Notes: generated by a model not told the origin, from the letters alone. A stretch of 64,000 bases of DNA from Candidatus Latescibacterota bacterium (GCA_965206595.1 OZ242214.1:1394986-1458985), one strand, 5' to 3'. Positions 7,127 to 44,439 are shown, counted from the stretch's first letter. Numbers and translations are program-made.

Positions 7127-7230
7127 GACTGAGGCGAGTCCCGAAACAACCGCTACCGGGCTGGGCAAGCCCCTGCATGGCGCCCGCTTCGCCGTTCCGT
7201 CCCGAGAAACCCGGGAAGCCCGGGACCCGA

Positions 7231-7693
7231 TCACTCGAAGTCGGACGAACTCTGGTTGAACTGCGTCGGCCAGCCGTTCCCGCATCGGCGTCGAAAACCG
7301 CGAGCCAGACGGTGACGGTCTCCCGCGGTTCGAGGGGCCAGTACCTGGCATCCTGGTGCCAGGGAACCGTCGATTCGTCGTGGGGGAACTTGATGAAGAA
7401 GGCCCCTCCCCACTGGTAGAAGTCGGGGCCGAGAAGGTCCTCGACGTAGTCGAGAACGGCGGGGATGCGGCCCAGCTCATGGACCAGCGGTTCGCCTTGT
7501 GCCAGTTGTTGACGCGGTAGATGTCGACGCTGTCCGGCACGCTGTCGACGAGCTCCGTGAACTCCCGCTGCAGCGTCGCGACCCCCTCCTCGTCGAGCAG
7601 GCGCAGGTTCTTCAGGTAACCGGTCTCGTGGAACTGTTCGATCCGGGCCGGGGTCAGGCGCAGGCCCCTGGCCGCGGCGGCGATTTCAGACAT
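7231..7693 (-). pseudogene. PhyH-family dioxygenase remnant (frameshifted, C-terminally truncated)
   Basis: Starts MSEIAAAARGLRLTPARIEQFHETGYL; after a shift near 7485 the alternate frame continues LVHELGRIPAVLDYVEDLLGPDFYQWGGAFFIKFPHDESTVPWHQDARYWPLEP (H-x-D iron motif); a second shift leads to a stop at 7231, so the distal His and Arg are missing. Confidence 0.6.
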
Positions 7694-7887
7694 GGGAGGT
7701 CTCCTCGTCGGGCTGGTGAAAGGGCCATGGCGAACCGACGCAAGGCCTAAGAGCGGACCCTGATTCTGCGTGCCTCGCGAACCTCACGGAGCCCCGCGCC
7801 GTCAACTCCAGGGATTGCGGACGTCAATTTCCGTTCTCCTGGCGAATCGGACCGCTGACCGGCCGGTCCCTCCGGCAGCGGCTCCGC

Positions 7888-26472: not shown

Positions 26473-26636
26473 GTTTTCAAGGCAGAGAATTTTTCTTGAA
26501 ACTTTAGTTTCACCAACATGAAAAGAATCGGGAATGCGCCGCTATTCAAGCAGCTTCAGCGCTCTATCGTCCGATGGCCTCGAATCGGGCTTATAAGGCC
26601 TTTTTGCGGCACCGAAAAGGACCTCCGTTCCCTTTT

Positions 26637-28382
26637 TCAGCCCATCGCCGGAGCTATGGCTTCGGGTTTGGGCGTAAGCGCCCGCAGCATTCTCTTGAAA
26701 TTGCAGGCCAGGGCTTTCAGGTAGACGGCCAGCTCCACGCGCCAGCGTCCGCGCACACGCAGGGCGCCCAGCCCGTGTCTTCGTTTCAGTTCCGAGACCG
26801 TGGCCTCGATGCCGGCGCGAATGCGATAGCGCTCCTTGAAGGCGCCGCTGGCGATGGCGCGGCGGCGGCGTTCGAGGTTGACGGCTTTCAGGTCCACGGT
26901 TACGGCGTAGCCGTCCCCGTCCTGGTTCGGCCGCACCGGGCAGAGGGGAAACAGGGCGCAGGTCTGGCAGCTTCGGCGCTCGAAGGTCAGCACCACGTGG
27001 TGCTTCTTCTTCTCATACGACGTTTGCTCTCTAGCCAGGTATCCGGCCGGGCAGATGGCCGGATCCCGGAGACGGGCCTCGACGAGGAAGTCGGCTTCGG
27101 TCACCGTATCGGGGCGCTCCTCGACGTCGACCTGCGGGCCTTTGACCGGGCTGACCAACTCGGTGCCCAGGCGCTCGGCGTTGACGGCGTTGTCGCCGGA
27201 GCCGAAGGCGGTGTCGGCGACCAGCTCGTCGGGTCGTTGCCCGCGCTCTTCGAGGGCCTCCAGCACCGGCATCGTCGCGTGCTCGTCACTGGCGCAGGCA
27301 TCGGTCACCGCTACGTGGGTGATCCTGTTCACGGTGTCGGTCTGGTCGTCGTCGGTCTGGTCGTCGTCGGTCTGGTCGTCGTCAGTCTGGTCGTCGTCAG
27401 TCTCGACGCAGGTCTCGGCGATCTGCACCTCATACCCCTTGCCCTTGCGGCCGTGGTAGGTGGCCTCGGCATCATAGGGGCTTTGCAGCGAGTCGCTGCC
27501 GACCTTCTCAGGCGCCTTCAGCACCACCGGCACGCCGCCTTCGCCGGCGTCGTCGTCCTCGGTCGAGGGGCGCTGCTTGTCCACGATCACCTCACACTGC
27601 TCCCACAGCAGGCGCTGCAGCAGCGCGTAGGATGCCAGGCCCTCCGCCGCCGTGCCCGCAAACAGCTGATGGAGACGGTAGAGGTCGCGGGCGCACACCG
27701 GCAGCCGCCTCTTGCCCGTGCCGGAGGGCGCGTCCTGGTAGGCCGTGGCGCTGCCGTCCTCCTTCAGGTAGCGCTCGCGCAGGCGCTTCGACACCCGCCC
27801 GTACAGGCGCGGATGCTCCGCCGCCAGGGTTTTCAGAAAGTGACGGAGGGTCTCACACAACAGCCCCAGACGCGACAACACCGCGATGTTGCTGAGCACG
27901 TGGGTGGAGTCCAGACGCTGCCGGGTGACCTTCGTACCCAACGCTTGGAGAATGCCATCCGTGGTCGCCTCGAACGCCTGCCGGCCGCGGTCATGGGCCA
28001 GCAAGCGAGCGCGGAAGTTGTGCAGCGTCAGGACGTTGTTAGTCCTCGTCTTCTGCGCCAGGTGGGCCTCCTCCGGGGTCAGCTCCAGGGCGTGCTGCCA
28101 CAGCAGGCTGAACTCCAGCTGCTCCAGCGCCTCGGCGTCGGTCAGAGCGAACATCTCCTTGAGCAGAAGCACGCCCAAGACCGTCGCCACCGGCTGGTTG
28201 GGACGACCGTTGTCGTCGCAATACAAGAGCGCGAACTGTTCTTCGTCGATCAGCGGCAAGGCGTGCGCGCGAAAGCTCTCGGCCCAGCTCGCCTGCAGGC
28301 GCCGCTGCTTGGACGGAGGCACCAGGTTGCGGCTCTCGAACAGGGTGCGTTGCGAATCCTTCGTACGAAACATCAGCCCCAT
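26637..28382 (-). CDS. IS1182-family DDE transposase
   Basis: 581 aa; N-terminal MGLMFRTKDSQRTLFESRNLVPP, C-terminal Cys-rich region (CQTCALFPLCP), acidic linker with (DDDQT)x4. Confidence 0.8.
   Translation of the reverse strand: MGLMFRTKDSQRTLFESRNLVPPSKQRRLQASWAESFRAHALPLIDEEQFALLYCDDNGRPNQPVATVLGVLLLKEMFALTDAEALEQLEFSLLWQHALELTPEEAHLAQKTRTNNVLTLHNFRARLLAHDRGRQAFEATTDGILQALGTKVTRQRLDSTHVLSNIAVLSRLGLLCETLRHFLKTLAAEHPRLYGRVSKRLRERYLKEDGSATAYQDAPSGTGKRRLPVCARDLYRLHQLFAGTAAEGLASYALLQRLLWEQCEVIVDKQRPSTEDDDAGEGGVPVVLKAPEKVGSDSLQSPYDAEATYHGRKGKGYEVQIAETCVETDDDQTDDDQTDDDQTDDDQTDTVNRITHVAVTDACASDEHATMPVLEALEERGQRPDELVADTAFGSGDNAVNAERLGTELVSPVKGPQVDVEERPDTVTEADFLVEARLRDPAICPAGYLAREQTSYEKKKHHVVLTFERRSCQTCALFPLCPVRPNQDGDGYAVTVDLKAVNLERRRRAIASGAFKERYRIRAGIEATVSELKRRHGLGALRVRGRWRVELAVYLKALACNFKRMLRALTPKPEAIAPAMG
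27336..27404. repeat. 15-bp tandem repeat (about 4.5 units, GTCGGTCTGGTCGTC) inside the IS1182 transposase gene
   Basis: Three perfect units at 27336-27380, then a G->A variant and a partial unit; encodes the DDDQT repeat on the minus strand. Confidence 0.85.
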
Positions 28383-28459
28383 CCAGTAAAGAGGAAGTGT
28401 GTGACGGATTGGTATACACCAATATACCAGGAACCCTTGATTATCAGGGCTGTGAGAGA

Positions 28460-28486
28460 GGGGTTTTTACGAGAGAATCACTCTTG
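28460..28486. repeat. IS1182 terminal inverted repeat, right (transposase-proximal) end
   Basis: GGGGTTTTTACGAGAGAATCACTCTTG. Confidence 0.7.
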
Positions 28487-28560
28487 TTAAAAAGTGCGTA
28501 AAGTGGAGGCTACACCCTTTCCTGCTGTGGGGATGTTGGCAGGTACCCGAAGACCCCAAT

Positions 28561-30142
28561 TTGCTCGCGCAAGTCGGTGATGTTCGCATAACTGTCGAGG
28601 TTTTGCAGACCTATGCTGCAAAGGCGCCTACCAACATGGAAGAATTCCAGGTTGAATACCGGGATCTGCTGCAAACTTTAGTGGATCGGGAGGTGCTGCT
28701 GCTGGAAGCCCAAATCCGGGGAATGGCTGAAGACTCCTTGGCCCAGTCACGACTCCGTGAGGATGAAACAGAGCGCCTCGTGCAAGAGATGCTTTCGCCA
28801 AGTTACCGCCAGGCTTTCGGTTACTCCTGAAGAGGTGAGAAGGGAATTCGAAACTGGTGGCTGGGATGACCAGGTCCAGTGCCTCCAGATCTTCGTGTCC
28901 GATTCGGCCAGAGTAGGAATGCTGTTGGACAAGTTGCAGGAGGGGGCCGACTTCGAGGAATTGGGCAGGCGCTGGGCGGAAGACCGCCTTTTCAAAATCC
29001 CGACCGGTTCGGTGCAGAGGTTTTCTTACTCTGCCAAGGACGGACCCCGAAAAGTCGTGGAGGCGGTTTTCGATTTGTCCGCTGGAGAGGTGACTGGGGC
29101 CATCGAGATCGACGGCGGATGGGTCATTGTCAAGGTTTTGGAAAGGCGTCGGGTTCCGTTCGAGGAGGTGAGGGAGAAGGTTCAAAACTGGTTGACCCGT
29201 AGAAAAAAGGAGGCTTTGCGAGACGTCTATTTCATTTCGCTGCGAGAGAGCTTCGAATTGGCTTTGAACCAGGAAGGAATTGACCTGGTACTGCGGATGC
29301 TGAAAGAGGGGGTCCGCGGCCATGGGCTGGCCGCGGAAGAGCGCATGGTGCCGGTGTACACCTACAGGGGAGGAGCGCTAACGGTAGAAGCGGCCCTTTC
29401 GGCGATAAAACAAGGACCTCGAAGTTCGGCCGACCTTTCCGAAGGCCTTGTGATAGAGAAGTTGAGAGAGGTTCTCAAGCGCAGGCTGGTACTGGCTGAC
29501 GCCCGGTCGCGAGGTCTGGATGAGACCGAGGAATTCAGGAAGTGGAGACGGGGGAAGAAGGCGGACCTGATGATCGGCATGTTGCGCTCCCGGGTCCTCG
29601 ATGAAGAACTAACGGTCTCGGAAGAAGAAATCCGGGCCCGTTACGAGGAGCGCAAGGAGCATTTTCGTCAGCCTGCAAGTGCTCGGGTTCTCGACCTCCT
29701 CGTCAAGGATCCCGGAGAAGCGAGAGCATTACGGCGGGAGATCGAAGCCGGCGGGGACATGCGCAGTCTCATACGTCGCCACAGCATCCGGGAAAATTCC
29801 GAGGAGGGGGTCCTGGAGGTTTACGAAGTACAGTCCATGATTTTTGGAGAAGAATGGCTCAACGCGGTCATGAATGCCCCGGTGAACGAACTACGGGGAC
29901 CTGTCGAGAGCAAAGGGGGATTCTCCCTGTTCAAGGTGCTCGAGAGAAGACCCCGCGACTACTTCCAGCTCGAAAACGAACGCGTGCGCATGACCCTGAT
30001 CAGGGAGATCAGGGAAATCAAGGAGCGGGTACTGTTCAATGAGTTCCTGGAGAGCTTGCTGCGCAAGCATTCCGACCTGATCCATGTTTCAGAGGAGAAT
30101 CTCGAGCGCATGGAGGCTGAGAGCAGAACTGAACTACAATAG
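28561..30142 (+). pseudogene. Parvulin-type peptidyl-prolyl isomerase (SurA/PrsA-like), frameshifted and apparently 5'-truncated by the IS1182 insertion
   Basis: ORF 28561..28830 (SurA-N-like ITVEVLQTYAAKAPTNMEEFQVEYRDLLQTLVDREVL) continues in ORF 28757..30142 after a shift near 28800 (parvulin-like VQCLQIFVSD...GADFEELGRRWAED...GAIEIDGGWVIVKV). No signal peptide; the reading frame stays open back into the IS right end. Confidence 0.6.
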
Positions 30143-30565
30143 GTTGATTGGGCAACCACCTAGAGGGAGGATCTGTCCTGACCTCCGGCCCTCAAAAGGC
30201 GGAGATCGAAGCGTTCTTCCGCAGCTTCTACTCTCGCCCGACTCGCCGAGGCCCCGGTTCTGCTGAAGGTTCGCGAGCCGCTCGAAGGGGAGGTAGCCCT
30301 TACCGGCCCCCCGCCGGATCGATGGCGATCAAGGCTGTCGAGCACCTGGCATCGGCCCGGTCCCAACAGGACCGACCGCGCCCGTCGCCCCCGTGCCCTG
30401 CTACTTCTCACGCTCTTGGATAAAGGGGTGGTCGGACTTCCGGCGGACGGTCACCCAGGAAAAGGCGAAAAAGCTGTTTCCGGCCCTCAGGTACCTGCTC
30501 GGCTTCTCGTCCAATCCCAATCGTCAGGGGCTGATCCTGCCCGCGGCGGATTCGGCGCCGATTTT

Positions 30566-32770
30566 TCAGAAATACAGTTTGTGCAGCACCCGCAGGTTGC
30601 TGCCCGGCTCGGGCAGGATCTCCTTGACCCGGTTGAGGTGCCTGCGATAGACCGCGTCGGTGGCGTTTTCCAGGCTGGCCGAAAAGGCGTGCAGACGCCC
30701 GCGCCAATGGGCGAGGTATTGCCCGGACAGATCAAGCACGGCGTAGCCGTCGGTCGGTTCCTCGAACTCGCCGGGACGGCCCTGGGCCGCGGCGAGGCGA
30801 AGCGCGACAGTGCCGCTCAGGGATTCCCGCCCGCCGGTCAGGCTGAAACGGCCCTGCAGTGGAGGCATCCGGGGCAGCGGCTCGTCGTCCCGGTCGCTCA
30901 ACACCCCTCGCACATGGCTCGCGGTGACCGCGGTTTCCCAGCTACGCGACAGCTCCCAGTCGACGGCGACCTCGGCACCGCGCATGCGGGCACGTTCCCC
31001 GACGGTCCGATACAGGAACAGGTCGGCGCGCCGCCGACTCTCCTCGCCGGTGTTCCTGGGAAAGATGAAGCCGTCGATGTCGTTGCGGAAAATGGCGAGG
31101 TGGAGATGTCCCCCGGGGTGGTGGTAGTCGGCGAACAGCTCGAGCCCCCGCCCGCGTTCGCTGTCCAGGGCGCCGTTGCCGACTTCGTAGGAGTACGCAG
31201 CCAGGTGCGGCCCCTCCGAGAACAGCTCTTCGATTCCGGGAGCCCGGAAGGTGCGCATCAGGGTCGCGCCCAGGGTCAACGCTTCGGTGGGGCGATAGTG
31301 AGCGGACAGGCCGCCTGACAATCCCGCGAAGTCCCGCCGCTGTATGCGGCCGACCATCCGGGAATCCCGCTCCTCCCGTGGTCGGACGCTGCGAGCGTCT
31401 AACCGCACGGCCCCGTTAGCGGCCCAGGAACCGCGTTCCCACTCCTGGTAGGTGAAGCAAGCCGCGGCGTACTCGGTTGCCGGAGGGGTGAAGCTGAGGC
31501 CTGCGGCGGCGTAGTTGCGGTATTCGTACCAGACCCCGGCGGCGCCGTTCTCGAAGGGACCGACGGGATTCAGGCGGGCGAGACTGGCGAGGTGGTGGGT
31601 CAGTACCCCGAACTCTATGCCCTTTGATCCGCTGGCCTCGAACTCGCCGTGCTGGTAGCGGGAGAAGGTGTGGTGCAGCTCGAGCTGCCTGATCCGGTCG
31701 GAAACCGCAAGAAGCTCGGCGCGCGTTTCCAGGTGCTGGCGTTCGAGCAGGATCGACACCCCAGACGGGTGGGAGCCGATCGGGTCCGGAGGTATGCCGT
31801 ACTCGGAATCGTAAAGGCTTCCGGAGAAGCCGAAGTGGCCCCAAGGCTTCACCAGACTGACTCCCAGCGATCCGTTGCCGGTGCGGATGTCGGTGTTGGC
31901 AAGGGTGCCTCGCGGAGTCGAGACATCCCCTGCATGACGCAGGCTGCTGTCGAAGCGCAGAGCGAGCGGTCCCAGCGGCTGTTCGAATGCGAGCCCCGCG
32001 GAAAGGCCGCCGGTGACGCTTTCCCCCTGCCAGACGAAGGAACCGTTGCGCTGCTGCGGCTGTTCGGAAGGAACGTACCCGCGGACGACGTTGACCACCC
32101 CTCCCAAAGCATTGGAACCGTAGAGGATGGTCTCCGGGCCCCGGATCACCTCGATGCGTTCCGTGGTCATCGGTTCGATCGCCACGGCGTGGTCCGACGA
32201 TGACGCGGACAGGTCCCCGGTGCGTTCCCCATCTTCGAGCACGAGCAGGCGGTCGCCGCTCAGTCCGCGCAATACGGGGCGGGAGGGCGCCGGGCCCATG
32301 GTTCGCTGCGCCACTCCTGGTTCAAAGTCAATGGTCTCGGCTATGGTGCGGCTGAGATTCTGACGGAGTTTGCTGCCGCTGAAAACGACTTCGGGTTCGT
32401 GAAGCGGGGAGACAGGCCGCTCGTGCTCATCCTCGACAACGGTCTCCTCCATGTGCAGGGCATCATGTCCGATCTGGAGATCGACGTGGGTTGTGTCTCC
32501 CTGCTCGACCCGCACCTCGAATCGCGCATCGCGGTATCCGAGGTGCAGCGTCTGCAGGATGTACATCCCCGGGGTCAGGGCGGGAAAAAGGAAATGCCCT
32601 TCGCTGTCGCTGACGCGGCCGTGGTTGATCCCCTCGATGACCACGGTTGCCCAGGGCACCGGGTCGCCGCTGTCGGCGTCGACGACGTGCCCGGCGAGCG
32701 CCCCTGTTGCAGCGGCGTACAGGGGCGCTGCCGACAGGTATGCAGCAAGAGCAAACGTTCGGAAGATCAA
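30566..32770 (-). CDS. TonB-dependent receptor with N-terminal carboxypeptidase-regulatory-like domain
   Basis: 734 aa; signal peptide, CarbopepD_reg-like segment (GHVVDADSGDPVPWATVVIEGINHGRVSDSEGHFLFPALTPGMYIL), plug and barrel-like body, C-terminal ...VLHKLYF. Start codon appears to be TTG, 4 nt after the lipoprotein stop. Confidence 0.85.
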   Translation of the reverse strand: MIFRTFALAAYLSAAPLYAAATGALAGHVVDADSGDPVPWATVVIEGINHGRVSDSEGHFLFPALTPGMYILQTLHLGYRDARFEVRVEQGDTTHVDLQIGHDALHMEETVVEDEHERPVSPLHEPEVVFSGSKLRQNLSRTIAETIDFEPGVAQRTMGPAPSRPVLRGLSGDRLLVLEDGERTGDLSASSSDHAVAIEPMTTERIEVIRGPETILYGSNALGGVVNVVRGYVPSEQPQQRNGSFVWQGESVTGGLSAGLAFEQPLGPLALRFDSSLRHAGDVSTPRGTLANTDIRTGNGSLGVSLVKPWGHFGFSGSLYDSEYGIPPDPIGSHPSGVSILLERQHLETRAELLAVSDRIRQLELHHTFSRYQHGEFEASGSKGIEFGVLTHHLASLARLNPVGPFENGAAGVWYEYRNYAAAGLSFTPPATEYAAACFTYQEWERGSWAANGAVRLDARSVRPREERDSRMVGRIQRRDFAGLSGGLSAHYRPTEALTLGATLMRTFRAPGIEELFSEGPHLAAYSYEVGNGALDSERGRGLELFADYHHPGGHLHLAIFRNDIDGFIFPRNTGEESRRRADLFLYRTVGERARMRGAEVAVDWELSRSWETAVTASHVRGVLSDRDDEPLPRMPPLQGRFSLTGGRESLSGTVALRLAAAQGRPGEFEEPTDGYAVLDLSGQYLAHWRGRLHAFSASLENATDAVYRRHLNRVKEILPEPGSNLRVLHKLYF

Positions 32771-32776
32771 TCCTTT

Positions 32777-33292
32777 TTAGCCTTCCTCATCGTGATCCTC
32801 GTCGGCGTGGGAGTCCTCAAAGCCCGGACCTCCTTCTTCGACGTGGACTTCAATATCCTTGGAAACGAAGTCGGCGTGGTCGTTGTGGTTGAGCTTGATC
32901 ACCATGGTGGTCTGCCCCTCTTCCAGGCCGGAAATGTGGAATGCCCAGGGGCCGTCTTCCTCGTGCTGTTCGATTTCGGCGATGCTTTCGTCGGCGATTT
33001 CCCAGTCAAGGGCATAGCCGTCGTCCGCGTCCGGGGTGAACAGGTCGCCGTCCTCGGCAATGAAACGCACCGACAGCAGGGGGGTTTCCAGGCCGTGGCC
33101 CACTTTGATGTCACCTTCTGTCTCGCCGTTCTCGTAGCGGACGAGCTCCTCGCCGCTGCCGAAGATGATCAAGCCGAAGGCTTCGGCGTGCTCTTCCCCC
33201 TCATGGGGGTCTACGGGATTGTCGTCGTCGCCACAGCCGGCAAGGAGCAGTGACATGAGAATCGGTGCTGCTGTCGAGATAATCCTGAGCAT
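32777..33292 (-). CDS. His/Asp/Glu-rich lipoprotein; putative metal-binding accessory of the downstream TonB receptor
   Basis: Start at internal ATG 33292 (MLRIISTAAPILMSLLLAGC, lipobox LLAGC) with GGAGAA RBS; very acidic mature protein with His clusters (DPHEGEEHAE, HNDHADF, DSHADEDHDEEG). Confidence 0.65.
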   Translation of the reverse strand: MLRIISTAAPILMSLLLAGCGDDDNPVDPHEGEEHAEAFGLIIFGSGEELVRYENGETEGDIKVGHGLETPLLSVRFIAEDGDLFTPDADDGYALDWEIADESIAEIEQHEEDGPWAFHISGLEEGQTTMVIKLNHNDHADFVSKDIEVHVEEGGPGFEDSHADEDHDEEG

Positions 33293-33513
33293 GGTATGGT
33301 TCTCCAGGTTGATGTCCCTGTGACCCGAAGGTCCCGGGGTTGTGATCAATGTGATACCGGTCGGAACAGGCAGGAGACATGGGCCTACCGCCTGTATCCA
33401 CGCGGGTCGGGTAAGGAGAACGCATCCGCACCCCGCCGATCCAGATGGCGCGGAAGCGTCGGGCGGTGGCGCCAGGATGGCGGAAAGGGACTACGTGAGG
33501 CGAGTGCGGATGC

Positions 33514-33825
33514 TCAGGTGCGGGGTGGGGCGCGATTCCCGAAAGAATAGCCGCGGAAGAAAAGCGGCGGCGGGACGGACCAGATGACCTGGTGGCGGGT
33601 GCGGGGTCCGGCGAGCAGGAGGGCGAGTGCAAGGATGACGCCGACGAGCAGCACCAAGCTGCTCTCGAGCATGCGGGCCGGGCAGTTTTCCGGTTCGGTC
33701 GATCCTGCGTGGAATAGCTGATGACCAAACGGGAGTGTAAGGAAAAGTCCGATCAGCAGGGCGGCAAAGCAGAGCACCGCGAGATTCGCGAGCCCTCGAC
33801 AGCCTCTGTGGTATCCGGTAAGCAA
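33514..33825 (-). CDS. Possible small membrane protein (two hydrophobic segments); weak call
   Basis: 103-aa ORF with hydrophobic stretches LAVLCFAALLIGLFLTL and LVLLVGVILALALLLA; no clear RBS. Confidence 0.25.
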   Translation of the reverse strand: MLTGYHRGCRGLANLAVLCFAALLIGLFLTLPFGHQLFHAGSTEPENCPARMLESSLVLLVGVILALALLLAGPRTRHQVIWSVPPPLFFRGYSFGNRAPPRT

Positions 33826-34474
33826 TGGTCGTCAACCTTGCTGTCAATGTACTCCTGCTGACGGTGAACCGTCAAAGTCGGGCAGGAGGGTCCTCAGTGG
33901 CATCCAGTCGGGCGCGGCCTTACTTCCAACCGGCATCCACCAGGCAGCTCCGTTCGCTCCCGACGCCATTTGGCCAGGGCAGGCTTTGGCAATGCGTAGT
34001 TCGGAAAACCATGGTGCTCGGGGGTGAGAGTCGCTTTGGAGGCGAGAGCGGCCAGCAGACCAAAAGGGGCCACTTAATCTGCTCTGCCAGCGGCGGACAA
34101 AGGGCCGGTCCAGCTGTATGGGAATCCTGCCGGGGACCAACAGCCCCCGGCAATAGTGTTCGTGACCGACGGCATCTACCACACCCTGTCGAGGTTCGCA
34201 CCTGCTGTTGGGGAAATGACCGAGGAGGAGCTGGAGGTTGCCCTGGATGCCATAATGCCTTGCTGAGGGGATTCGATGAAATTCATCAGCGACCGCGCCT
34301 GCTCGGATTTGGCAGCAACAGAGGGAGGCGTTCGTCCCCGCTGTGCCGGCTGCCCTCCCATTGGGCCAGGGCGGCTTTACGGCTGCCTTGTCGTCGCGCT
34401 CAATATCAGTCTGCTACACTATCGGCGATCGGATTTCGAACGGAAAAGAAACGAAACGACTGGAATGGTTTCTC

Positions 34475-35040
34475 ATGCGAAAAGAAACGGAATACTCCTG
34501 GAAGGAGCATCGCGTCCTTCGGGGTGACGGCCGGGGCGGATACGTCGTTCATCCGGCGCAGTACCGGTTCGTGCCCCGCTACCGGGGGGTGAAGGTCCTC
34601 CCCTTCGGGCTGGCCGCCACGGACAACGGGGAGATTCTGCTAACGGGGGCGGCGAGAACCGGCCGCGGTCCGTCGGTGTACGGAGAGACCGTGGCTTCCA
34701 TTAGCGCCGACCTCGGGGTTACCTGGAGCGAGTACGAAACCGCGGGGTTCGGTCCGGCCGTGCGCCTGACCTTGCTCGGCCGCGGCAGGCCTCTTATCGA
34801 GACTGGCTGCGCCCCTTGCTCGCCGAGCTTCCAGGGGCGCGCTTGGCTATCGTCGGGGGATGCCCGTCCCGGGAGGACCTCGAGCGGTTCTTTGCGGGCA
34901 CGCCCACGGTGTTCGTCGGATACCTGCAAGGGGAGGAGCTCGCCCACGCCTACGCCAGCGCCGACCTCTTCGCCTTTCCCTCGGCCAGCGAGACCTTCGG
35001 CAACGTCGTCCTCGAAGCCGCGACCTTCCGGCAGTGGCAG
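34475..35040 (+). pseudogene. Juxtaposed gene remnants: Asp-box (BNR-like) protein N-terminal fragment fused out of frame to a family-1 glycosyltransferase C-terminal fragment
   Basis: ORF 34343..35326 from ATG 34475 (MRKETEYSW ... [12 protein letters not shown] Asp-box); a second frame from ~34780 gives a GT-B C-terminal signature ([25 protein letters not shown]...[37 protein letters not shown]) that stops making sense at ~35030, where the convergent GT39-like gene ends. Confidence 0.4.
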
Positions 35041-35044
35041 GCAT

Positions 35045-37537
35045 TCAATCTGCTTTCGTTTCCTCCGATGCCTCGATCCACGGCGCCAGTTCCGTCCCCA
35101 GTCCGGGATCCAACTCAACGGCTCTTTGGAGGTGGAACAAAGCCTGGTCCCGATGATCCGGGATGGGGGCAAGGATCTGCCCCAGGCCTCCATGGACACG
35201 CGCTTGTTTGTCGTCCAGCTTCAAGGACAGCTCGAGAAACTTAGCAGCATTCTCGTGGCTGTTCTCGCGAAGTGCGATATGCGACAGGAAATTGTACGCC
35301 TTGGGAAGTGGATGAATCCGGATTGACAACGACAGTAGTTCGGCCGCGGTTACCTTTGCTCCGCGGTCGTATAGATTCAGGGATAGAATTGAATATTGAT
35401 TCGCCAGCCAGGATGTATCACTAGTGGGCTGGGAGGCTTGGCGAGCCCCTTCCTCAAGTACGGAAAAGGACAAGCCGGGCAAACCAAGTTCAACCAGACT
35501 CATCCCACTTGCCCAGAAATACAGATACTGAAAGCGATCCACGGTCCCGGTCAGGTACAGTTCCATTGCCTCTTTGTCTGACTGCCCCATCCGCTTCAGA
35601 ACCTCCGCTTCGACGAGATGGGCAACCTTCGACTGGGGCAACTGCCTTTTCGCTTCTGAGATCGCCCGCAGGCTCGCGTTGAGGTCCCCTTCCCGAAGGG
35701 CGGAAGCCGCGGTTTCCAGTAAAGGATCGGCACAATACGGGCTTGTCGGCATCCGCTCCTGAAAATGCGTCCAGGCTGCTTGCCACTCTGTTTCATCCTT
35801 TCTGAAGACCATGACAGCCGGGTGGTCGAAGCCGGTGAACGACGGTTCGCTCCCATCGTCCCGGAATTCCAGGCCGCCGATGGAAGGGTAGTTTTTGAAA
35901 CGGCGGACCAAGTCAAAACCCAGATCGCCCTCCACCAGCGCCTCGTATAATGCCGCCCCGCCCGGAATCAGCTCCGGGACTGCGGTGAAATGCTGATAGC
36001 GGTTGACGTCGGTGATGACGATATAGTCCAGAGCGTCCAACTGCCTCTTCAGCCAATAGAGCTCTCCTTTGCAGGTCGCGAATCCGCGGAATTGGAAGAG
36101 CATCAACGTTTGGAAAGCACCGATTTGGAATTTTGCGGGATCGATCATACCCCGCATGGAGAAGGCGCCCCGTTCGACTCCGATACTGCTGTTGGCCGGG
36201 ACATGGTCGTTTATCCACCGGGCAGTCTGGACGCGGCTGTCCTCACGGGTATAGAGGCTGGCAAAGGCAACGCCGTACAGTGCGCTGTACGCGAACACCG
36301 CGGCGCAGATGCCGACGGCGAGCATGCGCACCCGGACGAAGCGGGGAGAGCGGACGAACCAGACGCAGAAGTCGGCTGCCAATAGGGCGAGGAAAGGGAG
36401 CAGGGGCAGGAGATACCGTATGTGCTTGGTATGCAGGCCGCCGATCAGGAAAAAGTAGATCCCCGCCCAGAGCAGGATAAGTCCATTTCGATGGTTCCTT
36501 TTCCAAAGGCCGCGGGATATCCCGAGAAGGAAGAGGAGGGTAAGAGGCCAGCCCACTCCCAGGGGCCACAGGTGGGTCCAATAATGCAGGTATGGGACGG
36601 TGTGAACATCCACCAGGCTCCAGGGAACGAGACGCTCTCCCCGAGCCACTATCATCGAATATCCCAGGTCGTCGGAGGAATGGGCCCGGAAAATCAGGTC
36701 CCAGTCCGTAACGAGAAACGGCTGGAGCGCCAGCAGGGCCAGCACCGCGGCGAGACCTGCCATCCAAATCCGGGGTGCCAGGACTGCCTTCAGGTGTCGC
36801 TGGCGAACCAGATGGCCGGCCAGCAGCACGAGCCCCACCGACAGGCCGATCAGGCGGACGGCCCCACTGAGCCCTATCAGAAAACCGGACCATATGAACC
36901 ACCGCCTGTCATCCTTTTCTAGTGCATTCAAAAGGGCGTGAACCGCGGCCAGGACAAGCAGAGCGAACAGCCCGTCGACGGTGTAGAAATGGGCGAGCTG
37001 GATCGCCAGCGGGGCTACGGCAACGATGAAGACAGCTAGCAGCCCGGTCAGCTCACCGAACCAGCGAACCCCGGCCAGCCAGACCAGGTACAGCGTCAGG
37101 CAGGAGACCAGCACCGCAAGGGTGCGGGCAGTGAGATATACATACCGGACATCATCGGGCGATTCCTGAGATTTGAAGTCGCGGCCGAGAACGATCCGGT
37201 TGAGCTCCAGGAAGCCCCGCAAGAGATAGACAGGGAGCGTGCCGTAGCTGGTCAGCTCTGGGGCGAACGGGTCGATGGGACCCAGGGCAGCCTGGACGAG
37301 AGTGGTTTCATCCGGATGGAAATGGTAGAATGCTCTGTCGCCTGTGGACTGGTTTGGTCCAGGCAGCACGAAGGAGCTGTCCCCCCGGGTCAACCCTGCG
37401 AAGCGCAGCGAGCAGCCCAGTACGAGGCATATAGCCAGAAAGAGGGAAGGGACTCGGGTTTTCTTTCTATGTCCACTCATGGGTGGTTTTTTACGAACAG
37501 CATGACCGGGGCATGATGGCTGCCGGTTCAGTCCCAT
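35045..37537 (-). CDS. Polytopic membrane glycosyltransferase (GT39/GT83-like, PMT/ArnT fold) with C-terminal TPR-like repeats
   Basis: 830 aa; many hydrophobic helices; DE motif in the first loop ([10 protein letters not shown]); C-terminal helical repeats. Start ambiguous between 37537 and the ATG at 37480. Confidence 0.6.
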
Positions 37538-39314: not shown

Positions 39315-40398
39315 TTACTTGAGCAGTGTCATGCTGCGGGTCTCGATGCCGGCAGGAGACTGCAGACGGTAGAAGTAGGTGCCGCTGGAGAGGCCGTCGC
39401 CGCTGAGCTCGACCCGGTAGGTTCCCGCCTGGCGAAAGTCGCTGACAAGGGTGCCGATGTGCTGGCCGAGGGCATTGTAGAGATTGAGCCGGACCTCTCC
39501 CGGCTGCGGGAGCGAGTACCTGATGGTAGTGGACGGGTTCCAGGGATTGGGATAGTTCTGAACCAGGTAGAAATCGGATGGCGCCCGGAGATCGCGCTTT
39601 CGGAAGCGACTACCGTCTCCACGCCCTGAACGAGGATTCCGAGGTGGTCGAGAAAGGTCCAGCCGGCCATCCAGAGATTGTCGGCGTCGAAGGCCCCGCG
39701 ATATGCGACTGCCTGGAAGAAACCGTCATCCGGGGGCGGCACGGCGCCTGACAGGGCCGGGCTGCCGGACATCGGGCGGGGGTCGAGGGCGCCGTCGTTG
39801 GTGCGGGAGATGCCGGTCAGCTGCACGGTACTGTAGCGATCGCCGAGCCCGCGGATGTAGACGTACTTCCCTTCCATTACAGTTGCGCCGGAAACGTGAG
39901 ACATGGCTTCGGCGGCATTGCCGCTGCCGGCGCGGGAGATGTCCTCGGAGCTGATCGCATCGCTTACCGCTGGCGCCTTCTGCCGTTCCTTGAGCAGCGA
40001 TGCCTCGGTGTTTCGCAGGGCGCGAACCTCGACTACCACCTCGTCGACGGCGATCGCTTCCGAGGTCAGGACGAGATCGAGGCGCAGAACCTCGCCGGCT
40101 GCGACCACTGCCTCGGTTACGGTCACGGTGTTGTAGCCGATCATCGAGCTTTCGATCTCGTAGGTGCCGGCCGGGACGTCGGGGATCCTGAAGTCCCCCT
40201 CGATTCCGGTCACCGTGCCGAACCCGGTCTCCTTGAGGTAGACGTACGCACCGACGAGGGGTCTCCCGTTTCCCCGTCGATGATGTCGCCTGCTACAATA
40301 CCGGTTTGTGCGCCCGCTTCCGAGGGCCCGGCGATGGGAAGCAGGGCGCCGAGAAGCAGTGCGCCGAATACCTGGGTCGATCTGTGATTCTGCCGCAT
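39315..40398 (-). pseudogene. Secreted CarbopepD_reg-domain protein with T9SS (Por) C-terminal sorting domain, interrupted by two frameshifts
   Basis: Signal peptide MRQNHRSTQVFGALLLGALLPIAG (GGGAGAAAA RBS) in ORF 40210..40437; CarbopepD_reg/plug-like region in ORF 39329..40213 (GIEGDFRIPDVPAGTYEI...GKYVYIRGLGDRYSTVQLTGI); a third frame ends with a type-A T9SS CTD (FYLVQNYPNPWNPSTTIRYSLPQPGEVRLNLYNALGQ...GTYFYRLQSPAGIETRSMTLLK, stop 39315-39317). Shifts near 40240 and 39580. Confidence 0.55.
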
Positions 40399-40592: not shown

Positions 40593-42602
40593 TCAGTAGG
40601 TAAGCGGAAAGGAGGCTACCGCGGTATCGGTTCCGGAGTCCGCCCTCACGGTAAGGCGCAGCAGGTAAATGCCCGGGGGCAGGAGTCCGCCCGTTTTACG
40701 TCCGCGGCCGTCCCATGAAGCCCAAAAGCGGCCGCTGCCCCTGCCCGAGGTCTCCAGGTCTGCCACCCGCCTGCCCCTCAGGTCCAGGACCTCCAGGCTC
40801 ATGGGCACGTTTCCGGCAAGATTGACCAGCTCGTATTGGATTTCGAGGGCCTCGTTGACCCCGTCCCCGTCGGGAGTGAGGGCCGTGAGGGACAGTTTCT
40901 GGATCGAGCGCTTACGGGGGTTCCGGGCTCTGACGGTCAGCCCCTGCCCATCTGTCCGCGGGTCGACGTCTCCCGGGGCAATCCGATGGCGGACTTCTCT
41001 CGGCCTGGTGCTGTCGAACACCCTGCCGGAGAACAGGGTAGACGCCTGAAAGACCTCGGCGCGAAAGTCGATCTCGATCGGTTCACCGGTGAGCTGAATA
41101 TCGATGAAGGGCAGGCGCACCACGGTGTATCGGCCGTTCCAGGGTTCCACCTCGTACTCGTCGCTGCCGAGGGTTCTCGCTCCGATCCGCACCTCGTCGA
41201 CGGACGGGGCGACCGGCACGTCGAACTGAATGCTGTCAAACCCGGAGTCCTCCTCGGAGACGACGGCAAACAGTTTGTAGGTGAAGGAAGTCACCTCCCC
41301 GAAGCGGGTCTCCGGTGGGACGATTTCAGCGGTGATGAGCGAGGCTACCGGGGGTTGGGTGATTTCGAATTGGAGATAGTCCATTCTGCCGCCGGTGTTG
41401 CTGGTCGAGCGGAAATCGATGGCGAACTGCGCGAACCGGTGCGGCAGGGTGGTGGCGAGATCCAGCCGGCCTGACGCAAACTCCGCGGGAGCAGTCCAGA
41501 ATTTCCAGTTCTGGCTGTCGGGGGTGATGCCGGCCGCTTCCCCTCCTTCGAGACGTCCGTAGGCTTGACGGGTCAATTCCACCCCGCCGGCGTCGAAACG
41601 CGACCTTCGATCTCCCCGGAAAGTATTGCGCCAGTATTGGTGCGGGTCTTCGTCGGTGCCGCTGCGGGCGCTGATCCTTACACTGGCTCCGGGGGATGCT
41701 TCTCCGTTCCAGTACACGGCGTCGAGGCTTGCCCGGCCGCCCAGGTCGATTATGCCCGAGATGTAACCGGCTTCCGGGACGTACCCGTCGCCGTAGATCT
41801 CGAACTCGGCGATCTCCCACAGGTCCAACGGGGCGGTTAGCACGACCGCCTGAACCGCGCGGCCGATTTCAAGTTCGAACTCGGCACTAGTGTTCTCGAA
41901 GTCCTCGAACAGGACGTCGAATTCGAGGTGCCCGACCTGAAGCGGAAGCTCGCGCGTCGGGCCGCCGAACTTGAACCGATTCAGCAGTCCCGGCACTTCT
42001 CCCGGGCGAATGGGACTGCCCTCGGCGACACCTAGTGTCAGCTCGGGTATGAAGCGGTCGTGGGCGTGATCGGGACGGGTTCCGAAGCGGATGCGGCTGA
42101 TGTTGTAGGGATTGCCGAGATTGAAGACGAGGATCTTGTAGTCGACAACGCAGTCGCAGCCGGGATCGTACAGGGCCATGGCGTTGTAGCTGCCCGATTG
42201 CCCCTCCGAAGACCTCTTTCCCGCGGAGCCTTCGTACACGCTCGCGGGATTGCCGTCGAACAGATTGTCGATCTGGGGTTCGTTCTGCAGCCGTCCCGCG
42301 GTGGTGGAAACGCGGACGGAGCCGCCTTTGTCCCGTATCGAGGGGGTCAGGTTTTCGTCGGGAGAAACAAACACCGGGGCGATGGCGCCGTTCTCGAAAG
42401 CGATCAGTCGAGTGGAGCCGAACTCACTGGCGGCGGCCTCCTCCCATGTGATCTGGACCAGATCGACCCCTTCCGGGGCAGGAAGGTCCTGCCCGCCGAC
42501 GCGGACAATCGTCAGTGCCCCAGGGTCCCGGGATGACCACAGGAAAACCGAGAGTGCGACAATGAGTGCAGTTGCCGGGTGTTTCAACCCAACCCCGCGC
42601 AT
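40593..42602 (-). CDS. Secreted protein with discoidin-like N-terminal region and T9SS type-B/FlgD-Ig-like C-terminal domain
   Basis: Start at internal ATG 42602 (MRGVGLKHPATALIVALSVFLWSS signal peptide); DNLFDGNPASVYEG resembles F5/8 type C; C-terminus LTPDGDGVNEALEIQYEL...RFWASWDGRGRKTGGLLPPGIYLLRLTV matches gliding-motility/T9SS type-B-like domains. Confidence 0.55.
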   Translation of the reverse strand: MRGVGLKHPATALIVALSVFLWSSRDPGALTIVRVGGQDLPAPEGVDLVQITWEEAAASEFGSTRLIAFENGAIAPVFVSPDENLTPSIRDKGGSVRVSTTAGRLQNEPQIDNLFDGNPASVYEGSAGKRSSEGQSGSYNAMALYDPGCDCVVDYKILVFNLGNPYNISRIRFGTRPDHAHDRFIPELTLGVAEGSPIRPGEVPGLLNRFKFGGPTRELPLQVGHLEFDVLFEDFENTSAEFELEIGRAVQAVVLTAPLDLWEIAEFEIYGDGYVPEAGYISGIIDLGGRASLDAVYWNGEASPGASVRISARSGTDEDPHQYWRNTFRGDRRSRFDAGGVELTRQAYGRLEGGEAAGITPDSQNWKFWTAPAEFASGRLDLATTLPHRFAQFAIDFRSTSNTGGRMDYLQFEITQPPVASLITAEIVPPETRFGEVTSFTYKLFAVVSEEDSGFDSIQFDVPVAPSVDEVRIGARTLGSDEYEVEPWNGRYTVVRLPFIDIQLTGEPIEIDFRAEVFQASTLFSGRVFDSTRPREVRHRIAPGDVDPRTDGQGLTVRARNPRKRSIQKLSLTALTPDGDGVNEALEIQYELVNLAGNVPMSLEVLDLRGRRVADLETSGRGSGRFWASWDGRGRKTGGLLPPGIYLLRLTVRADSGTDTAVASFPLTY

Positions 42603-42696
42603 CTTTGCATAAAGACCCCGGAAACCGCAAGCCGTGCACTGTTGCATTGGAGCGGGACGGGGGGGTTGCAAACCATTGGGCTGGCCGGCGAAGGTG

Positions 42697-44439
42697 TCAT
42701 TCGTACAGCTCGACCGCCGTTTCCCCGCGGGCAAAGCGCTGCGCCGTCTGCGCGGCCGACTGGGAGCCGATGCTGCGGCGGGCGTCCGTCGCCCAGCGGG
42801 CCAGGCCGACCAGAAGCTGGCCCCGGGCCGGATGCCCTGCGCAGTGCTCCCACTCGTCGAACACGGTGCGCAGCGTGTGCAGCAGCGACCAGCCGTTGTC
42901 GTCCTTGAGAATCGTCAGGCCGAGCTCGGACAGCAGCCGGTTCCCGGAGTGACCGCTGTTGAGGTAGTCTCGGGTCATGCGGCCGATGTCGCGGATCCGG
43001 ATCGACTCGACGGCCTCCAGGATAGCCTGCAGGGCCCCGTCGGCGGCGGGGTTCTCTCCCTGTTCCGGTTCGGAGCCTCGCCCCGGACGCTCGGTAAGTT
43101 TCCTGGTCGAGATGTTGAGCCAGCGGTTGTCGAAGAAGCGCCAGGCCGCGTGATAGCAGGCGCGCGCGGCAATGGCGAAACCGGCCTGTTTCTCAATTGA
43201 CCTGAGGCTCGAACCCAGAGCCATTTCCCATGCCAGGTCGTGCCAGCCAGGGCTCATGCCGACCGGCGTGCGCGCCATGCGGTCGGCCGCCAGCAGCACC
43301 ATGGTCGTGGCGATCCGGTCTATCGAGGCCCCCTGTCTCAAGACCTCGGAAACGGCCCCGAAGGTCGTGGCGATATCCCCGCTCACCAGGGCATCGGAAA
43401 ATGCGTTCTCGTCGAAATCCCCGCCTCCGCCCTGCTTCGATGCCTCTTCGATCACTGCATCGGCGGCGGTGAACAGATCCATGGCCTCGCGCAGCACGTC
43501 CATCGGAACGGGCCGGCCGCGGCCGAGCATCTTTCCGGCGAGGTTGCAGACCAGCTCCTCGCTCAGATCCCATCCGAACTCGTCGAGCAGCTCGGCGAGA
43601 TGGGTGAGGTTCCTCAGGTTGTCCTGTTGCCCCAGGAAGTGGGGCAGCACCGCGCACTCCAGCAGCAGGGGAACGATGGCGCCGTCGTGACCCCGCAGGC
43701 GGCGCGCGGTTATCAGGCACTTCTCGATCCCCTCAGGCATCTTGTCGGAAGCGAAGAAGCGAACCCATCCGGCGAGCTTCGGCCAGTCGACCGGCGGCGG
43801 CAGAGGTTCCACCTGAGGGCGGTCCCCCGCCGTTCCCGCGGCGGCCGAGGCTGCCATCATCAGGGGGATCAGGCGGTCCTCCGGCTCGTAGCGCCGCGCC
43901 ACGTTCAACCCGTTGACGAACTGGGCGACGTCGTGGCCCCCGTTCTCGTGCCGGTGGGTGGTGATGTGCCCGCCCATGTGGCGCACGATCAGCTCCAGGG
44001 TTTCCCGCTCAGACACACCCTTGGCCAGCAGGATGGCGATCGCCTTCGACAGCGTCCAGCTGTCGCCGTTGTTGAGACCCTCCTGCAGCAGCAGGAAGTG
44101 GGCGTCGGGGCGCTTCGAGCCGCCACTGGCCACGTCGACGAAGACAGCCCCGTCCCGCACCTGCACCGGGAAGGTGTCGAGATCGTCGCAGCCCCCCGTA
44201 AAGCAGCCACCGCCCGCCATGTCGTAGCTGTACCCGTGCCAGTCGCAGGTGAGGACGCCTCCGCGGGCGATCCCCCTGGTGAGGGGGTAGCCCATGTGGG
44301 GACATTGGTTGTCGGTCGCATACAGCTCGCCGTCGTGAAGGAACAGGGCGACGCTGTGCCCATCCACCCGCACCGCTTTCGGCTTTCCCTCCTCGACCTC
44401 GGCGAGGTCGGCAACCCTCGCGAAGCTGTCCTTCATCAT
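42697..44439 (-). CDS. Rieske [2Fe-2S]-domain fusion protein, paralog 1 (N-terminal Rieske + ~450-aa domain of unknown function)
   Basis: Rieske ligand boxes CPHMGYPLTRG and CDWHGYSYDM about 17 residues apart; no family recognised for the C-terminal domain; conserved blocks shared with paralog 2 (e.g. LLAADRMARTPV). Confidence 0.8.
   Translation of the reverse strand: MMKDSFARVADLAEVEEGKPKAVRVDGHSVALFLHDGELYATDNQCPHMGYPLTRGIARGGVLTCDWHGYSYDMAGGGCFTGGCDDLDTFPVQVRDGAVFVDVASGGSKRPDAHFLLLQEGLNNGDSWTLSKAIAILLAKGVSERETLELIVRHMGGHITTHRHENGGHDVAQFVNGLNVARRYEPEDRLIPLMMAASAAAGTAGDRPQVEPLPPPVDWPKLAGWVRFFASDKMPEGIEKCLITARRLRGHDGAIVPLLLECAVLPHFLGQQDNLRNLTHLAELLDEFGWDLSEELVCNLAGKMLGRGRPVPMDVLREAMDLFTAADAVIEEASKQGGGGDFDENAFSDALVSGDIATTFGAVSEVLRQGASIDRIATTMVLLAADRMARTPVGMSPGWHDLAWEMALGSSLRSIEKQAGFAIAARACYHAAWRFFDNRWLNISTRKLTERPGRGSEPEQGENPAADGALQAILEAVESIRIRDIGRMTRDYLNSGHSGNRLLSELGLTILKDDNGWSLLHTLRTVFDEWEHCAGHPARGQLLVGLARWATDARRSIGSQSAAQTAQRFARGETAVELYE

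Follow-up and report, generated by a model that had tools for sequence, protein, structure and literature searches.

A candidate leader-lipoprotein-transporter cassette for divalent-metal uptake, probably of zinc, in Latescibacterota and other bacteria of the FCB group

A stretch of 64,000 nucleotides from a Candidatus Latescibacterota bacterium (GCA_965206595.1, OZ242214.1:1394986-1458985), which we refer to as the window, carries on its minus strand three consecutive genes: a short leader open-reading frame (ORF), a small acidic lipoprotein and a TonB-dependent transporter (TBDT) (Table 1). We propose that these genes form a cassette for uptake of a divalent metal, most likely Zn2+, and that the cassette is controlled by the nascent peptide of its leader ORF; we assign this proposal a probability of roughly 0.55. 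An earlier, sequence-only reading of the same DNA suggested that the lipoprotein and the TBDT are coupled in the capture of a metal or a metallophore. This suggestion is supported by invariant ZnuD-type zinc ligands in the TBDT, by a conserved His3Asp set in the lipoprotein, and by the ZIP, COG0523 and Czc-type genes that adjoin related loci. The same reading treated the small ORF upstream as uncertain. We find it to be a real, conserved gene that is probably a regulator.

The cassette is conserved as a unit. A scan of GTDB species representatives yielded 61 loci, all from metagenome-assembled genomes (MAGs) in the FCB (Fibrobacteres-Chlorobi-Bacteroidetes) group. The carriers are mostly Latescibacterota, with others labelled Gemmatimonadota or belonging to Zhuqueibacterota, Calditrichota, Cytophagia and Bacteroidetes, and the closest relative of the window is found in a Latescibacterota MAG (lipoprotein identity 85%). 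Nearly all of the approximately 60 loci have the leader first, then the lipoprotein and then the TBDT; in the single Calditrichota locus and in one Bacteroidota locus, detection was limited to the lipoprotein and the TBDT. Because the remaining neighbours vary between loci, the cassette is self-contained. Genes of the COG0523 and ZIP families are markers of zinc homeostasis, and both occur beside the cassette. When the two nearest ORFs on each side were surveyed in 38 loci, the commonest neighbour was a PF03773 permease (8 ORFs in 6 loci), and COG0523 CobW-type GTPases (5 loci), ZIP transporters (3 loci) and Czc-type efflux components (3 loci) were also present. Taken together, neighbours of these four kinds are found at 12 of the 38 loci, and in L041 and L045 a PF03773 permease and then a COG0523 gene come after the TBDT, all on one strand. 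None of the 25 commonest neighbour families is specific for copper or haem.

The PF03773 (ArsP_1) ‘predicted permease’ occurs in L015, L030, L031, L033, L041 and L045. It either diverges from the cassette (a ZIP gene adjoins in three of the six loci) or lies directly 3’ of the TBDT and ahead of COG0523, and is a candidate inner-membrane partner.

Among known transporters, the TBDT is most similar to ZnuD. Its Pfam domains (an N-terminal CarbopepD_reg, a Plug and a β-barrel of the 22-strand type) agree with the CarbopepD-type TonB receptor of the sequence-only reading. ZnuD is the top NCBIfam match (NF038289; 152.9 bits, E = 1.3e-44, below the model’s cut-off of 950 bits), ahead of haem and haemoglobin receptor models in second and third place (5e-38 and 3e-35). 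ZnuD is also the nearest solved structure, with E-values of 7.4e-32 (single sequence) and 1.7e-69 (profile of 22 family members); OprC ranks second, and PhuR and ShuA are among the further matches. The buried high-affinity zinc site of ZnuD is built from Asp99, His100, Glu340 and His499 (PMC4557270). These ligands align with D193, H194, E376 and H522 of the TBDT, given an offset of 14 between PDB chain and mature ZnuD numbering that is consistent at all three aligned stretches, and the four residues are invariant across the 22 family members. In addition to this site, ZnuD has a loop 3 in which clusters of His, Asp and Glu act as a ‘fishing net’ (PMC4557270). ZnuD chain residues 255-316, a stretch of approximately 62 residues that holds its His/Asp cluster, correspond to about 10 positions of the TBDT profile. 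Loop 3 is thus absent from the TBDT, and capture would have to be provided by some external device.

The lipoprotein has a signal peptide (MLRIISTAAPILMSLLLAG) with a canonical LLAGC lipobox, followed directly by the lipidated Cys20. The mature protein of 152 residues has an isoelectric point of 4.05, contains 30% Asp plus Glu and 6.6% His, and carries a net charge of about -40; it has one Met, and the lipid-modified Cys20 is its only Cys. These values, with a C-terminus that reads ...DSHADEDHDEEG, match the acidic, His-rich lipoprotein with lipobox and His-bearing C-terminus that was first described. Homologues fall into 147 clusters (90%-identity clustering) at 54-90% identity, all annotated ‘hypothetical’, and an exhaustive profile search extends the family to 890 clusters at 50% identity (E<=1e-3). 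With this many homologous clusters and with its histidines conserved, the features of the lipoprotein are not due to chance. The absence of a defined family, remarked on at the outset, holds for Pfam, NCBIfam and the sequences of the PDB: scans of the lipoprotein and 50-60 distant relatives against the first two returned signal-peptide noise and sub-threshold Ig-like matches only, and the family profile matched nothing in the third. The sub-threshold matches, to Big_2, Big_1, NUP210-Ig and T2SS-T3SS_pil_N, were confined to a few relatives. We also looked for assignment to a family with a known non-metal function, and no such family was matched. Our literature search returned nothing relevant on the lipoprotein family or on metal TBDTs of Latescibacterota.

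AlphaFold2, run with a 43-sequence alignment, gives a confident all-β model for residues 40-152 (pLDDT 83.6). Foldseek searches of the PDB with this model retrieved generic Ig-like domains only, such as SbsC, the C-terminal domain of lambda gpV and the Ig domains of NUP210 (E ~1e-4, TM score 0.4-0.48), and no metalloprotein. As modelled, the lipoprotein has an Ig-like fold, probably of a class common with Big_2-type domains, and represents a distinct family. Among close relatives (alignment A1), H35, H110, D113, W116, H119, H136, H139, D141 and H150 are invariant or nearly so. The more distant set (alignment A4, 30-47% identity) keeps C20, H35, H136, H139, D141 and F142 along with structural Gly, Phe and Val residues; since these are what survive at 30-47% identity, we take the core of the family to be His3Asp. 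In the model, the HxxHxD motif sits at the junction of two predicted strands (126-136 and 139-143). The acidic, His-bearing tail at the C-terminus is present in the Latescibacterota clade only, and other members have an acidic or His-rich stretch before H35. The domain is not always single: in many of the 890 clusters it occurs in 2-5 tandem copies per protein (proteins P0121-P0150). P0121 (695 aa) has five copies and a C-terminal dockerin domain, and in P0130 and P0144 a single copy is fused to unrelated N-terminal regions.

On which face of the outer membrane would the lipoprotein be displayed? Published export signals for lipoproteins have the consensus SDDDD (B. fragilis, Asp at +3/+4), SDDFE or K-(D/E)2. 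The lipoprotein shows the same pattern of a lipobox Cys, a polar residue and acidic residues at +3 to +5, with Gly rather than Ser or Lys at +2 and for a signal validated only in Bacteroidota. CGDDD, with the lipidated Cys, is found in 57 of 76 lipoprotein copies, the window reading C-G-D-D-D-N-P-V. We also weighed a version of our proposal in which cassette and metal are the same and the lipoprotein is a periplasmic metallochaperone, taking the metal from the TBDT or docked on CarbopepD_reg and passing it to an inner-membrane importer. The TBDT does have a periplasmic N-terminal extension domain, and inner-membrane transporters (ZIP, PF03773) lie near some loci. Moreover, N-P-V is the most conserved motif after the Cys, more so than GDDD, and it lies outside the published export signal. 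Weighing on the other side, the G-D-D-D run resembles the S-D-D-D-D of B. fragilis, the carriers belong to the same superphylum, and the TBDT is without the extracellular capture loop of ZnuD. We consider a periplasmic chaperone a serious alternative, although less likely than not.

The leader ORF is conserved in its own right, with homologues in 35 clusters when the single sequence is the query and in 125 with a profile. It is always the first ORF, before the lipoprotein and TBDT genes, and is always followed by a long spacer (221 nt here, median 137 nt in relatives). Hydropathy predicts two hydrophobic segments (Table 1). The first is conserved in the leader alignment (A2) and preceded by a positively charged N-terminus, and would correspond to the N-terminal export signal or Nin-Cout transmembrane segment that characterises the DUF2946 class. 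H35, H39, C48, P49 and P101 are invariant in A2, and the C-terminus carries N-R-A-P-P. The 74 leader copies in the fetched loci follow the pattern HxxxH...E-P-E-x-C-P-x-[C/H/Y/S/G/R], then R[AG]PP. Only the two histidines and the first Cys of the putative metal-sensing loop are invariant: the position of the second Cys is variable, with CPAR in the window and CPxC/H/Y/S/G in relatives. At the other end of the protein, R[AG]PP is found in 73 of the 74 ORFs (the other has RPPP) and stands 2 residues from the stop in 60. Among leaders with a sensor Cys that could be scored, CPxx and R[AG]PP are 44-46 residues apart, mostly 46 as in the window.

Membership of DUF2946 is less clear-cut. The window leader has no match to the Pfam model (PF11162, gathering threshold 23.7 bits), and 12 of 22 relatives match below threshold, at 15-20 bits over profile positions 54-117 of 117. 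Only relatives with CxxC match. One relative, P0329, has a precomputed PF11162 match. We therefore file the leader as DUF2946-like, in the sense of CruR and CutF, and not as a proven member. By analogy with these two proteins, it is probably a regulator of the arrest-peptide type.

At 33562-33570 (residues 85-87) the window leader has V-P-P-P-L where relatives have V-P-L-P-L, and this extra polyproline, ~11 residues before RAPP, is a possible second pause site. In ~17 loci the leader-lipoprotein unit is duplicated in tandem ahead of one TBDT, each lipoprotein copy having its own leader (among them L003 at 6378-8507, L008, L009, L012, L013, L033, L035, L037-L039, L041, L044-L046 and L049). The tandem leaders differ systematically, the first having HQLFHE...CPAY and the second HQLCHE(G/S)H...CPAC, sometimes with extra HES/HGS repeats, and may represent two sensors unlike in metal affinity or specificity. 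A promoter-like TTGCGT-N16-TAAAAT in L003 (7549), L008 (5725), L037 (5815) and similar loci ends only ~8 nt before the leader ATG, so that the transcript may have little or no untranslated sequence ahead of the leader ORF.

The spacer between the leader and the lipoprotein gene has been recommended as a place to look for metal-responsive regulator boxes (33293-33520). We found neither a protein-operator box nor a known riboswitch there; no Rfam family matched anywhere in 30000-35500 at E<=1, and a known riboswitch is therefore absent. What the spacer does contain is structure. It is rich in C (0.38, with G at 0.26), and its minimum free energy (MFE) has a z-score of -3.05 relative to shuffled sequences. 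The anti-Shine-Dalgarno (anti-SD) GUUCUCC pairs with the Shine-Dalgarno (SD) GGAGAAC of the lipoprotein gene both in the single-sequence MFE structure and in an RNAalifold consensus of 12 loci. In addition, the stop region of the leader is complementary to the start region of the lipoprotein gene, the duplex CUGAGCAU:AUGCUCAG in the window having an energy of -15.8 kcal/mol. Cognate duplexes of this kind average -16.5 kcal/mol over 50 non-redundant loci, compared with -8.8 (standard deviation, sd, 2.8) for shuffled 5’ segments. Between 13 representatives of different sequence classes, cognate duplexes average -13.4 against -8.8 (sd 3.1) for non-cognate combinations; the cognate partner ranks first in 5 of the 13 classes and first or second in 8. 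The partners co-vary between classes, as in GGUGCUAG with CUAGCACC, CACGUUUCAU with AUGAAACGUG, CCUUCAG with CUGAAGG, and CCUCCUUCUC with GAGAAGAGG. Pairing of the leader stop region with the lipoprotein start is thus well supported.

A hairpin that begins directly after the leader stop completes a set of three helices. In the RNAalifold consensus for the window’s class all three are invariant islands within spacers of 115-231 nt, an invariance that is evidence neither for nor against pairing. Across sequence types, 95% of the cells of the hairpin are paired, 3 of its 10 pairs are altered on both sides and its covariation score exceeds those of all 500 shuffles, in a comparison that is biased towards pairing by the choice of 3’ arms as the best complement. 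The consequences of a ribosome at the end of the leader are less uniform. With a ribosome footprint imposed in folding, the lipoprotein start region of the window goes from 0.27 to 0.17 unpaired; in several distant classes the unpaired fraction rises (e.g. 0.08 to 0.40, and 0.17 to 0.51). The means are 0.32 for the free RNA, 0.39 for the stalled state and 0.42 with shuffled upstream sequence. Constrained folding therefore supports an unmasking of the ribosome-binding site in several distant sequence classes and not in that of the window.

Two characterised leaders suggest how such an arrangement could work. CruR (Bp2923, DUF2946) is the leader of cruR-bfrG-bp2921 in Bordetella pertussis; it has a CXXC motif followed 45 residues on by RAPP, and copper relieves its arrest, which results in Rho termination ahead of the TBDT gene (PMC9426467). 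The window leader is likewise short and the first ORF, carries an export or hydrophobic segment at its N-terminus, and has a Cys-containing metal motif and a C-terminal RAPP a few residues from its end, at a similar spacing (46 versus ~45 in CruR), and is likewise followed by a long spacer (221 versus 162 nt) in a TBDT operon. Unlike CruR, it has CPAR in place of CXXC together with an added, invariant HxxxH, lies below or outside the Pfam family, and comes from FCB phyla rather than Proteobacteria. The next gene encodes a lipoprotein and not a TBDT, there is no PepSY_TM gene, and the metal is probably zinc. Finally, CruR was described in terms of Rho termination, to which the window adds a pairing that masks the ribosome-binding site. 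In this last respect it resembles CutF, the DUF2946-type leader of cutFOG in Rhodobacter capsulatus, in which a copper-induced stall at a C-terminal proline motif unfolds a stem-loop covering the next gene’s ribosome-binding site (bioRxiv 10.1101/2025.02.05.636593). The anti-SD:SD and stop-region:start-codon pairings of the window recall this stem-loop. CutF differs in its motifs (CxxxC and PPP) and in controlling a copper-detoxifying oxidase. Since the target here is an uptake system, we expect a switch of the opposite sign, and the opening by a ribosome footprint is not reproduced in silico for the window’s class.

The mechanism that we infer for the cassette would begin with the leader. When the ribosome reaches RAPP, the HxxxH...CPxx loop would already be outside the ribosome, probably on the periplasmic side of the membrane, and by analogy with CruR and CutF, metal bound to this nascent loop could alter the duration of a ribosome stall. 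The stalled ribosome would occupy the last leader codons and the stop, exactly the stretch that can pair with the region where translation of the lipoprotein begins, and would abut the hairpin and then the anti-SD; with this overlap, its occupancy would set downstream expression. The ribosome could exert this control in two ways, alone or together: it could unmask the ribosome-binding site, or it could keep Rho from acting on the C-rich spacer. The logic expected of an uptake system is that at low metal the stall persists and the genes are on, and that at high metal the stall is released and the genes are off. The acidic lipoprotein, anchored to the outer membrane, would bind metal at its His3Asp site (H35, H136, H139 and D141), with help from its acidic, His-bearing linker and tail. 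It would hand the metal to the TBDT, where the ion may be held at the ZnuD-type Asp-His-Glu-His site before TonB-driven import. On this view, capture, which in ZnuD is performed in cis by loop 3, would be performed in trans by the lipoprotein.

Alternatively, the cassette could be the equivalent of Bordetella cruR-bfrG, with a leader that senses copper, a lipoprotein that binds Cu(II) and a TBDT that imports copper. CruR itself heads a TBDT operon with a long spacer, many relatives of the window leader have CPxC, and OprC (Pseudomonas aeruginosa, PDB 6FOK) is the second-best solved match of the TBDT, mostly over the C-terminal barrel. Copper retains some probability because the characterised DUF2946 leaders sense copper and because Cu(II) can bind His-rich sites, including one of His, Asp and Glu. 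Nevertheless, we think it unlikely. An OprC-type copper site in the TBDT was rejected on the CxxxM half-site, the half that was compared: Cys143 and Met147 of OprC align with Ser189 and Ser192, whereas the four zinc ligands of ZnuD are invariant. The mature lipoprotein offers one Met and no Cys beyond the lipidated one, the second Cys of the leader CXXC is not kept (R, H, Y, S or G), and the metal-related neighbours are ZIP, COG0523 and Czc-type genes, with no copper family among the 25 commonest.

It is also conceivable that the small ORF encodes an ordinary membrane protein that serves the system as a structural or accessory subunit, and that the RNA complementarity reflects only translational coupling or mRNA stability. 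Its two clear hydrophobic segments and conserved His and Cys residues would fit such a protein, as would its sub-threshold relation to DUF2946 and the failure of footprint folding to open the start region in the window’s class. However, in 60 of 74 copies R[AG]PP is separated from the stop by exactly 2 residues, with a fixed distance of ~46 residues from the Cys, and the position and spacing of RAPP are as in CruR, where both are functionally required (PMC9426467). The ORF always comes first, ahead of a long structured spacer, the start region of the next gene complements the last codons of the ORF in several unrelated sequence versions, and in tandem loci every lipoprotein copy has its own leader. 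An ordinary membrane protein therefore seems improbable to us.

The least tenable alternative is a haem-uptake pair like HmuY-HmuR, with the lipoprotein as a bis-His, hemophore-like protein and the TBDT as a haem receptor; it draws on the haem and haemoglobin receptor models that follow ZnuD in NCBIfam, on PhuR and ShuA among the PDB matches, and on the order of hmuYR, in which the lipoprotein gene likewise lies 5’ of the TBDT gene. We reject it, as the ZnuD ligands, including Asp and Glu, are invariant here and the same arrangement in ZnuD was reported to make a pocket too narrow for haem (PMC4557270), as the lipoprotein has no HmuY match in Pfam, HmuY is not among its top Foldseek matches, and its conserved residues are His3Asp plus acidic tails, and as no haem-related family is among the 25 commonest neighbours.

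In its parts, the cassette resembles known kinds: a ZnuD-type TBDT, a DUF2946-type leader and a lipoprotein-TBDT pair of the FCB group. As a combination it is new in its distribution in that group, in the degenerate CXXC with an added HxxxH, in the masking RNA and in a lipoprotein family unrecognised by the tested libraries. ZnuD of Neisseria meningitidis (PDB 4RDR; PMC4557270) is the best match of the TBDT among both solved structures and NCBIfam models, and its four buried-site ligands are conserved in position; overall similarity is low, the TBDT has an additional N-terminal CarbopepD_reg and lacks the loop 3 ‘fishing net’, and ZnuD has no dedicated lipoprotein or leader. With the Bacteroidota pairs HmuY-HmuR, BtuG-BtuB and SusD-SusC, the cassette shares a superphylum, a lipoprotein gene adjoining a TBDT with a CarbopepD_reg extension, and an acidic run after the lipidated Cys that resembles the export signal. 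The lipoprotein of the cassette is a single Ig-like domain of a size insufficient to cap a barrel; neither in sequence nor specifically in fold is it related to HmuY, BtuG or SusD, and its presumed ligand is a metal ion.

Several points weigh against zinc uptake under nascent-peptide control. The TBDT falls far short of the curated ZnuD cut-off (153 versus 950 bits), and an Asp-His-Glu-His site could also accommodate Cu(II), Co, Ni or Cd. The two DUF2946 leaders studied respond to copper, and the window leader has no DUF2946 match and has CPAR instead of CXXC. A single His3Asp site would need H35 to be near H136, H139 and D141 in space. The footprint does not open the start region in the window, and the average gain across classes is modest. 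A search 5’ of the leader for a Zur- or Fur-like palindrome or operator found promoter-like hexamers only and no Zur-like operator, no zinc-homeostasis gene adjoins the cassette in the window, and none of the relatives is from a cultured organism. A more specific form of the proposal is more tentative, and we hold it at somewhat less than even odds: that the leader is the first zinc-responsive nascent-chain sensor of the CruR/CutF class, with an HxxxH...CPx loop between two membrane segments and stop-region:start RNA pairing, and that the lipoprotein founds an Ig-like His3Asp family for zinc capture, present as 1-5 tandem copies, which takes the place of ZnuD’s capture loop in trans across the FCB superphylum.

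To our knowledge, CruR and CutF are the only two examples of nascent-peptide metal sensing, and both are copper-responsive and proteobacterial. If our proposal is correct, this form of sensing is found in a further superphylum, probably serves a second metal, and can use a sensor motif of a different type. The loci would also provide a natural series of RNA designs for direct comparison, from an anti-SD within the last codons of the leader to a three-helix junction. The lipoprotein family, with its 890 clusters and a clear candidate metal site, offers a testable answer to how loop-less ZnuD-like TBDTs are supplied with metal. Latescibacterota and their relatives are uncultured and are abundant in marine, sediment and sponge-associated metagenomes; for this reason, the cassette is a candidate marker of trace-metal limitation in such samples.

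Table 1. Positions of the cassette and its elements, counted from the first nucleotide of the window.
Feature	Position	Strand	Description	Basis
Promoter-like site (candidate)	33846-33875	minus	TTGACG-N18-TACATT, 5’ of the leader ORF	consensus scan
Leader ORF	33514-33825	minus	103 aa, TTG start	homologue clusters, alignment
Leader ORF, anatomy	33514-33825	minus	predicted hydrophobic segment 1 (~12-31), sensor loop, hydrophobic segment 2 (~55-73), C-terminal ...NRAPPRT-stop	
Putative metal-sensing loop, codons	33682-33723	minus	H35-QLF-H39...E-N-C48-P	A2, 74-ORF survey
Arrest-type motif, codons	33523-33534	minus	R98-A-P-P101, 2 residues before the stop	74-ORF survey
Leader stop region	33510-33517	minus	CUGAGCAU	complementary to lipoprotein start AUGCUCAG at 33285-33292
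Intergenic RNA, leader-lipoprotein	33293-33513	minus	221 nt, structured, C-rich	composition, folding
Hairpin, 5’ arm	33504-33513	minus	GCAUCCGCAC, directly after the leader stop	folding, RNAalifold, covariation
Hairpin, 3’ arm	33422-33431	minus	GUGCGGAUGC	folding, RNAalifold, covariation
Anti-SD	33415-33421	minus	GUUCUCC, directly 3’ of the hairpin	single-sequence MFE, RNAalifold
Lipoprotein SD	33299-33305	minus	GGAGAAC	ORF context, MFE, RNAalifold
Lipoprotein gene	32777-33292	minus	171 aa	ATG 33292 to stop TAA 32777-32779
Lipoprotein, parts	32777-33292	minus	signal peptide and lipobox, C20-GDDDNPV, acidic linker with H35, predicted Ig-like β-sandwich 40-152, acidic His-bearing tail 153-171	
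HxxHxDF motif, codons	32870-32887	minus	H136-N-D-H139-A-D141, most conserved motif of the family	near-invariant in A1 and A4
TBDT gene	30566-32770	minus	734 aa, TTG start	Pfam domains, ORF calls

The TTG start that the sequence-only reading gave to the TBDT is the sole in-frame start 5’ of the conserved N-terminus, and it recurs in L005, the closest GTDB relative, and in other lineages. The gap between the lipoprotein stop and this TTG was put at 4 nt and is in fact 6 nt (AAAGGA); it is also 6 nt in L005, and in several other loci the TTG is 3 nt past the lipoprotein stop. A longer lipoprotein ORF from TTG-33349 is a mere upstream extension of the gene that starts at ATG-33292. Ahead of the leader, the scan for promoter consensus sites gave 2 sites against 0.4 expected, and TTGAC[GT]-N18-TACATT is also found in L005 with different flanks. 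In L009, L012, L013, L029, L043-L047 and L049, a long gap (~120-230 nt) between the lipoprotein and TBDT genes contains a conserved GC-rich hairpin, GCGGGACCGGAGGCAAACTCCGGTCCCGY, that could be an attenuator setting the lipoprotein:TBDT ratio. The window, with its 6-nt gap, is without this hairpin.

Around the cassette, the window encodes neighbours that say little about its function: a DDE transposase, a peptidyl-prolyl isomerase (PPIase), a glycosyltransferase fragment and a PMT_2/TPR protein. The transposase (DDE_Tnp_1_6, DUF772; 26637-28382, minus strand) has a four-fold DDDQT tandem repeat and belongs to an insertion element ~2 kb downstream of the cassette; on the opposite strand, an ORF of 638 aa (26574-28490) appears to be a shadow ORF. 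The interval 33826-35044, between the cassette and the PMT_2/TPR gene, is without a convincing gene. A 142-aa fragment at 34816-35244 on the plus strand matches the middle of glycosyltransferase group 1 and is probably the remnant of a pseudogene. Farther away on the minus strand, a second TBDT-like ORF of 294 aa (39329-40213) has partial CarbopepD_reg and Plug domains and is apparently truncated, and a 713-aa protein (40593-42734) carries a CHU_C type IX secretion signal, which fits an organism of the FCB group.

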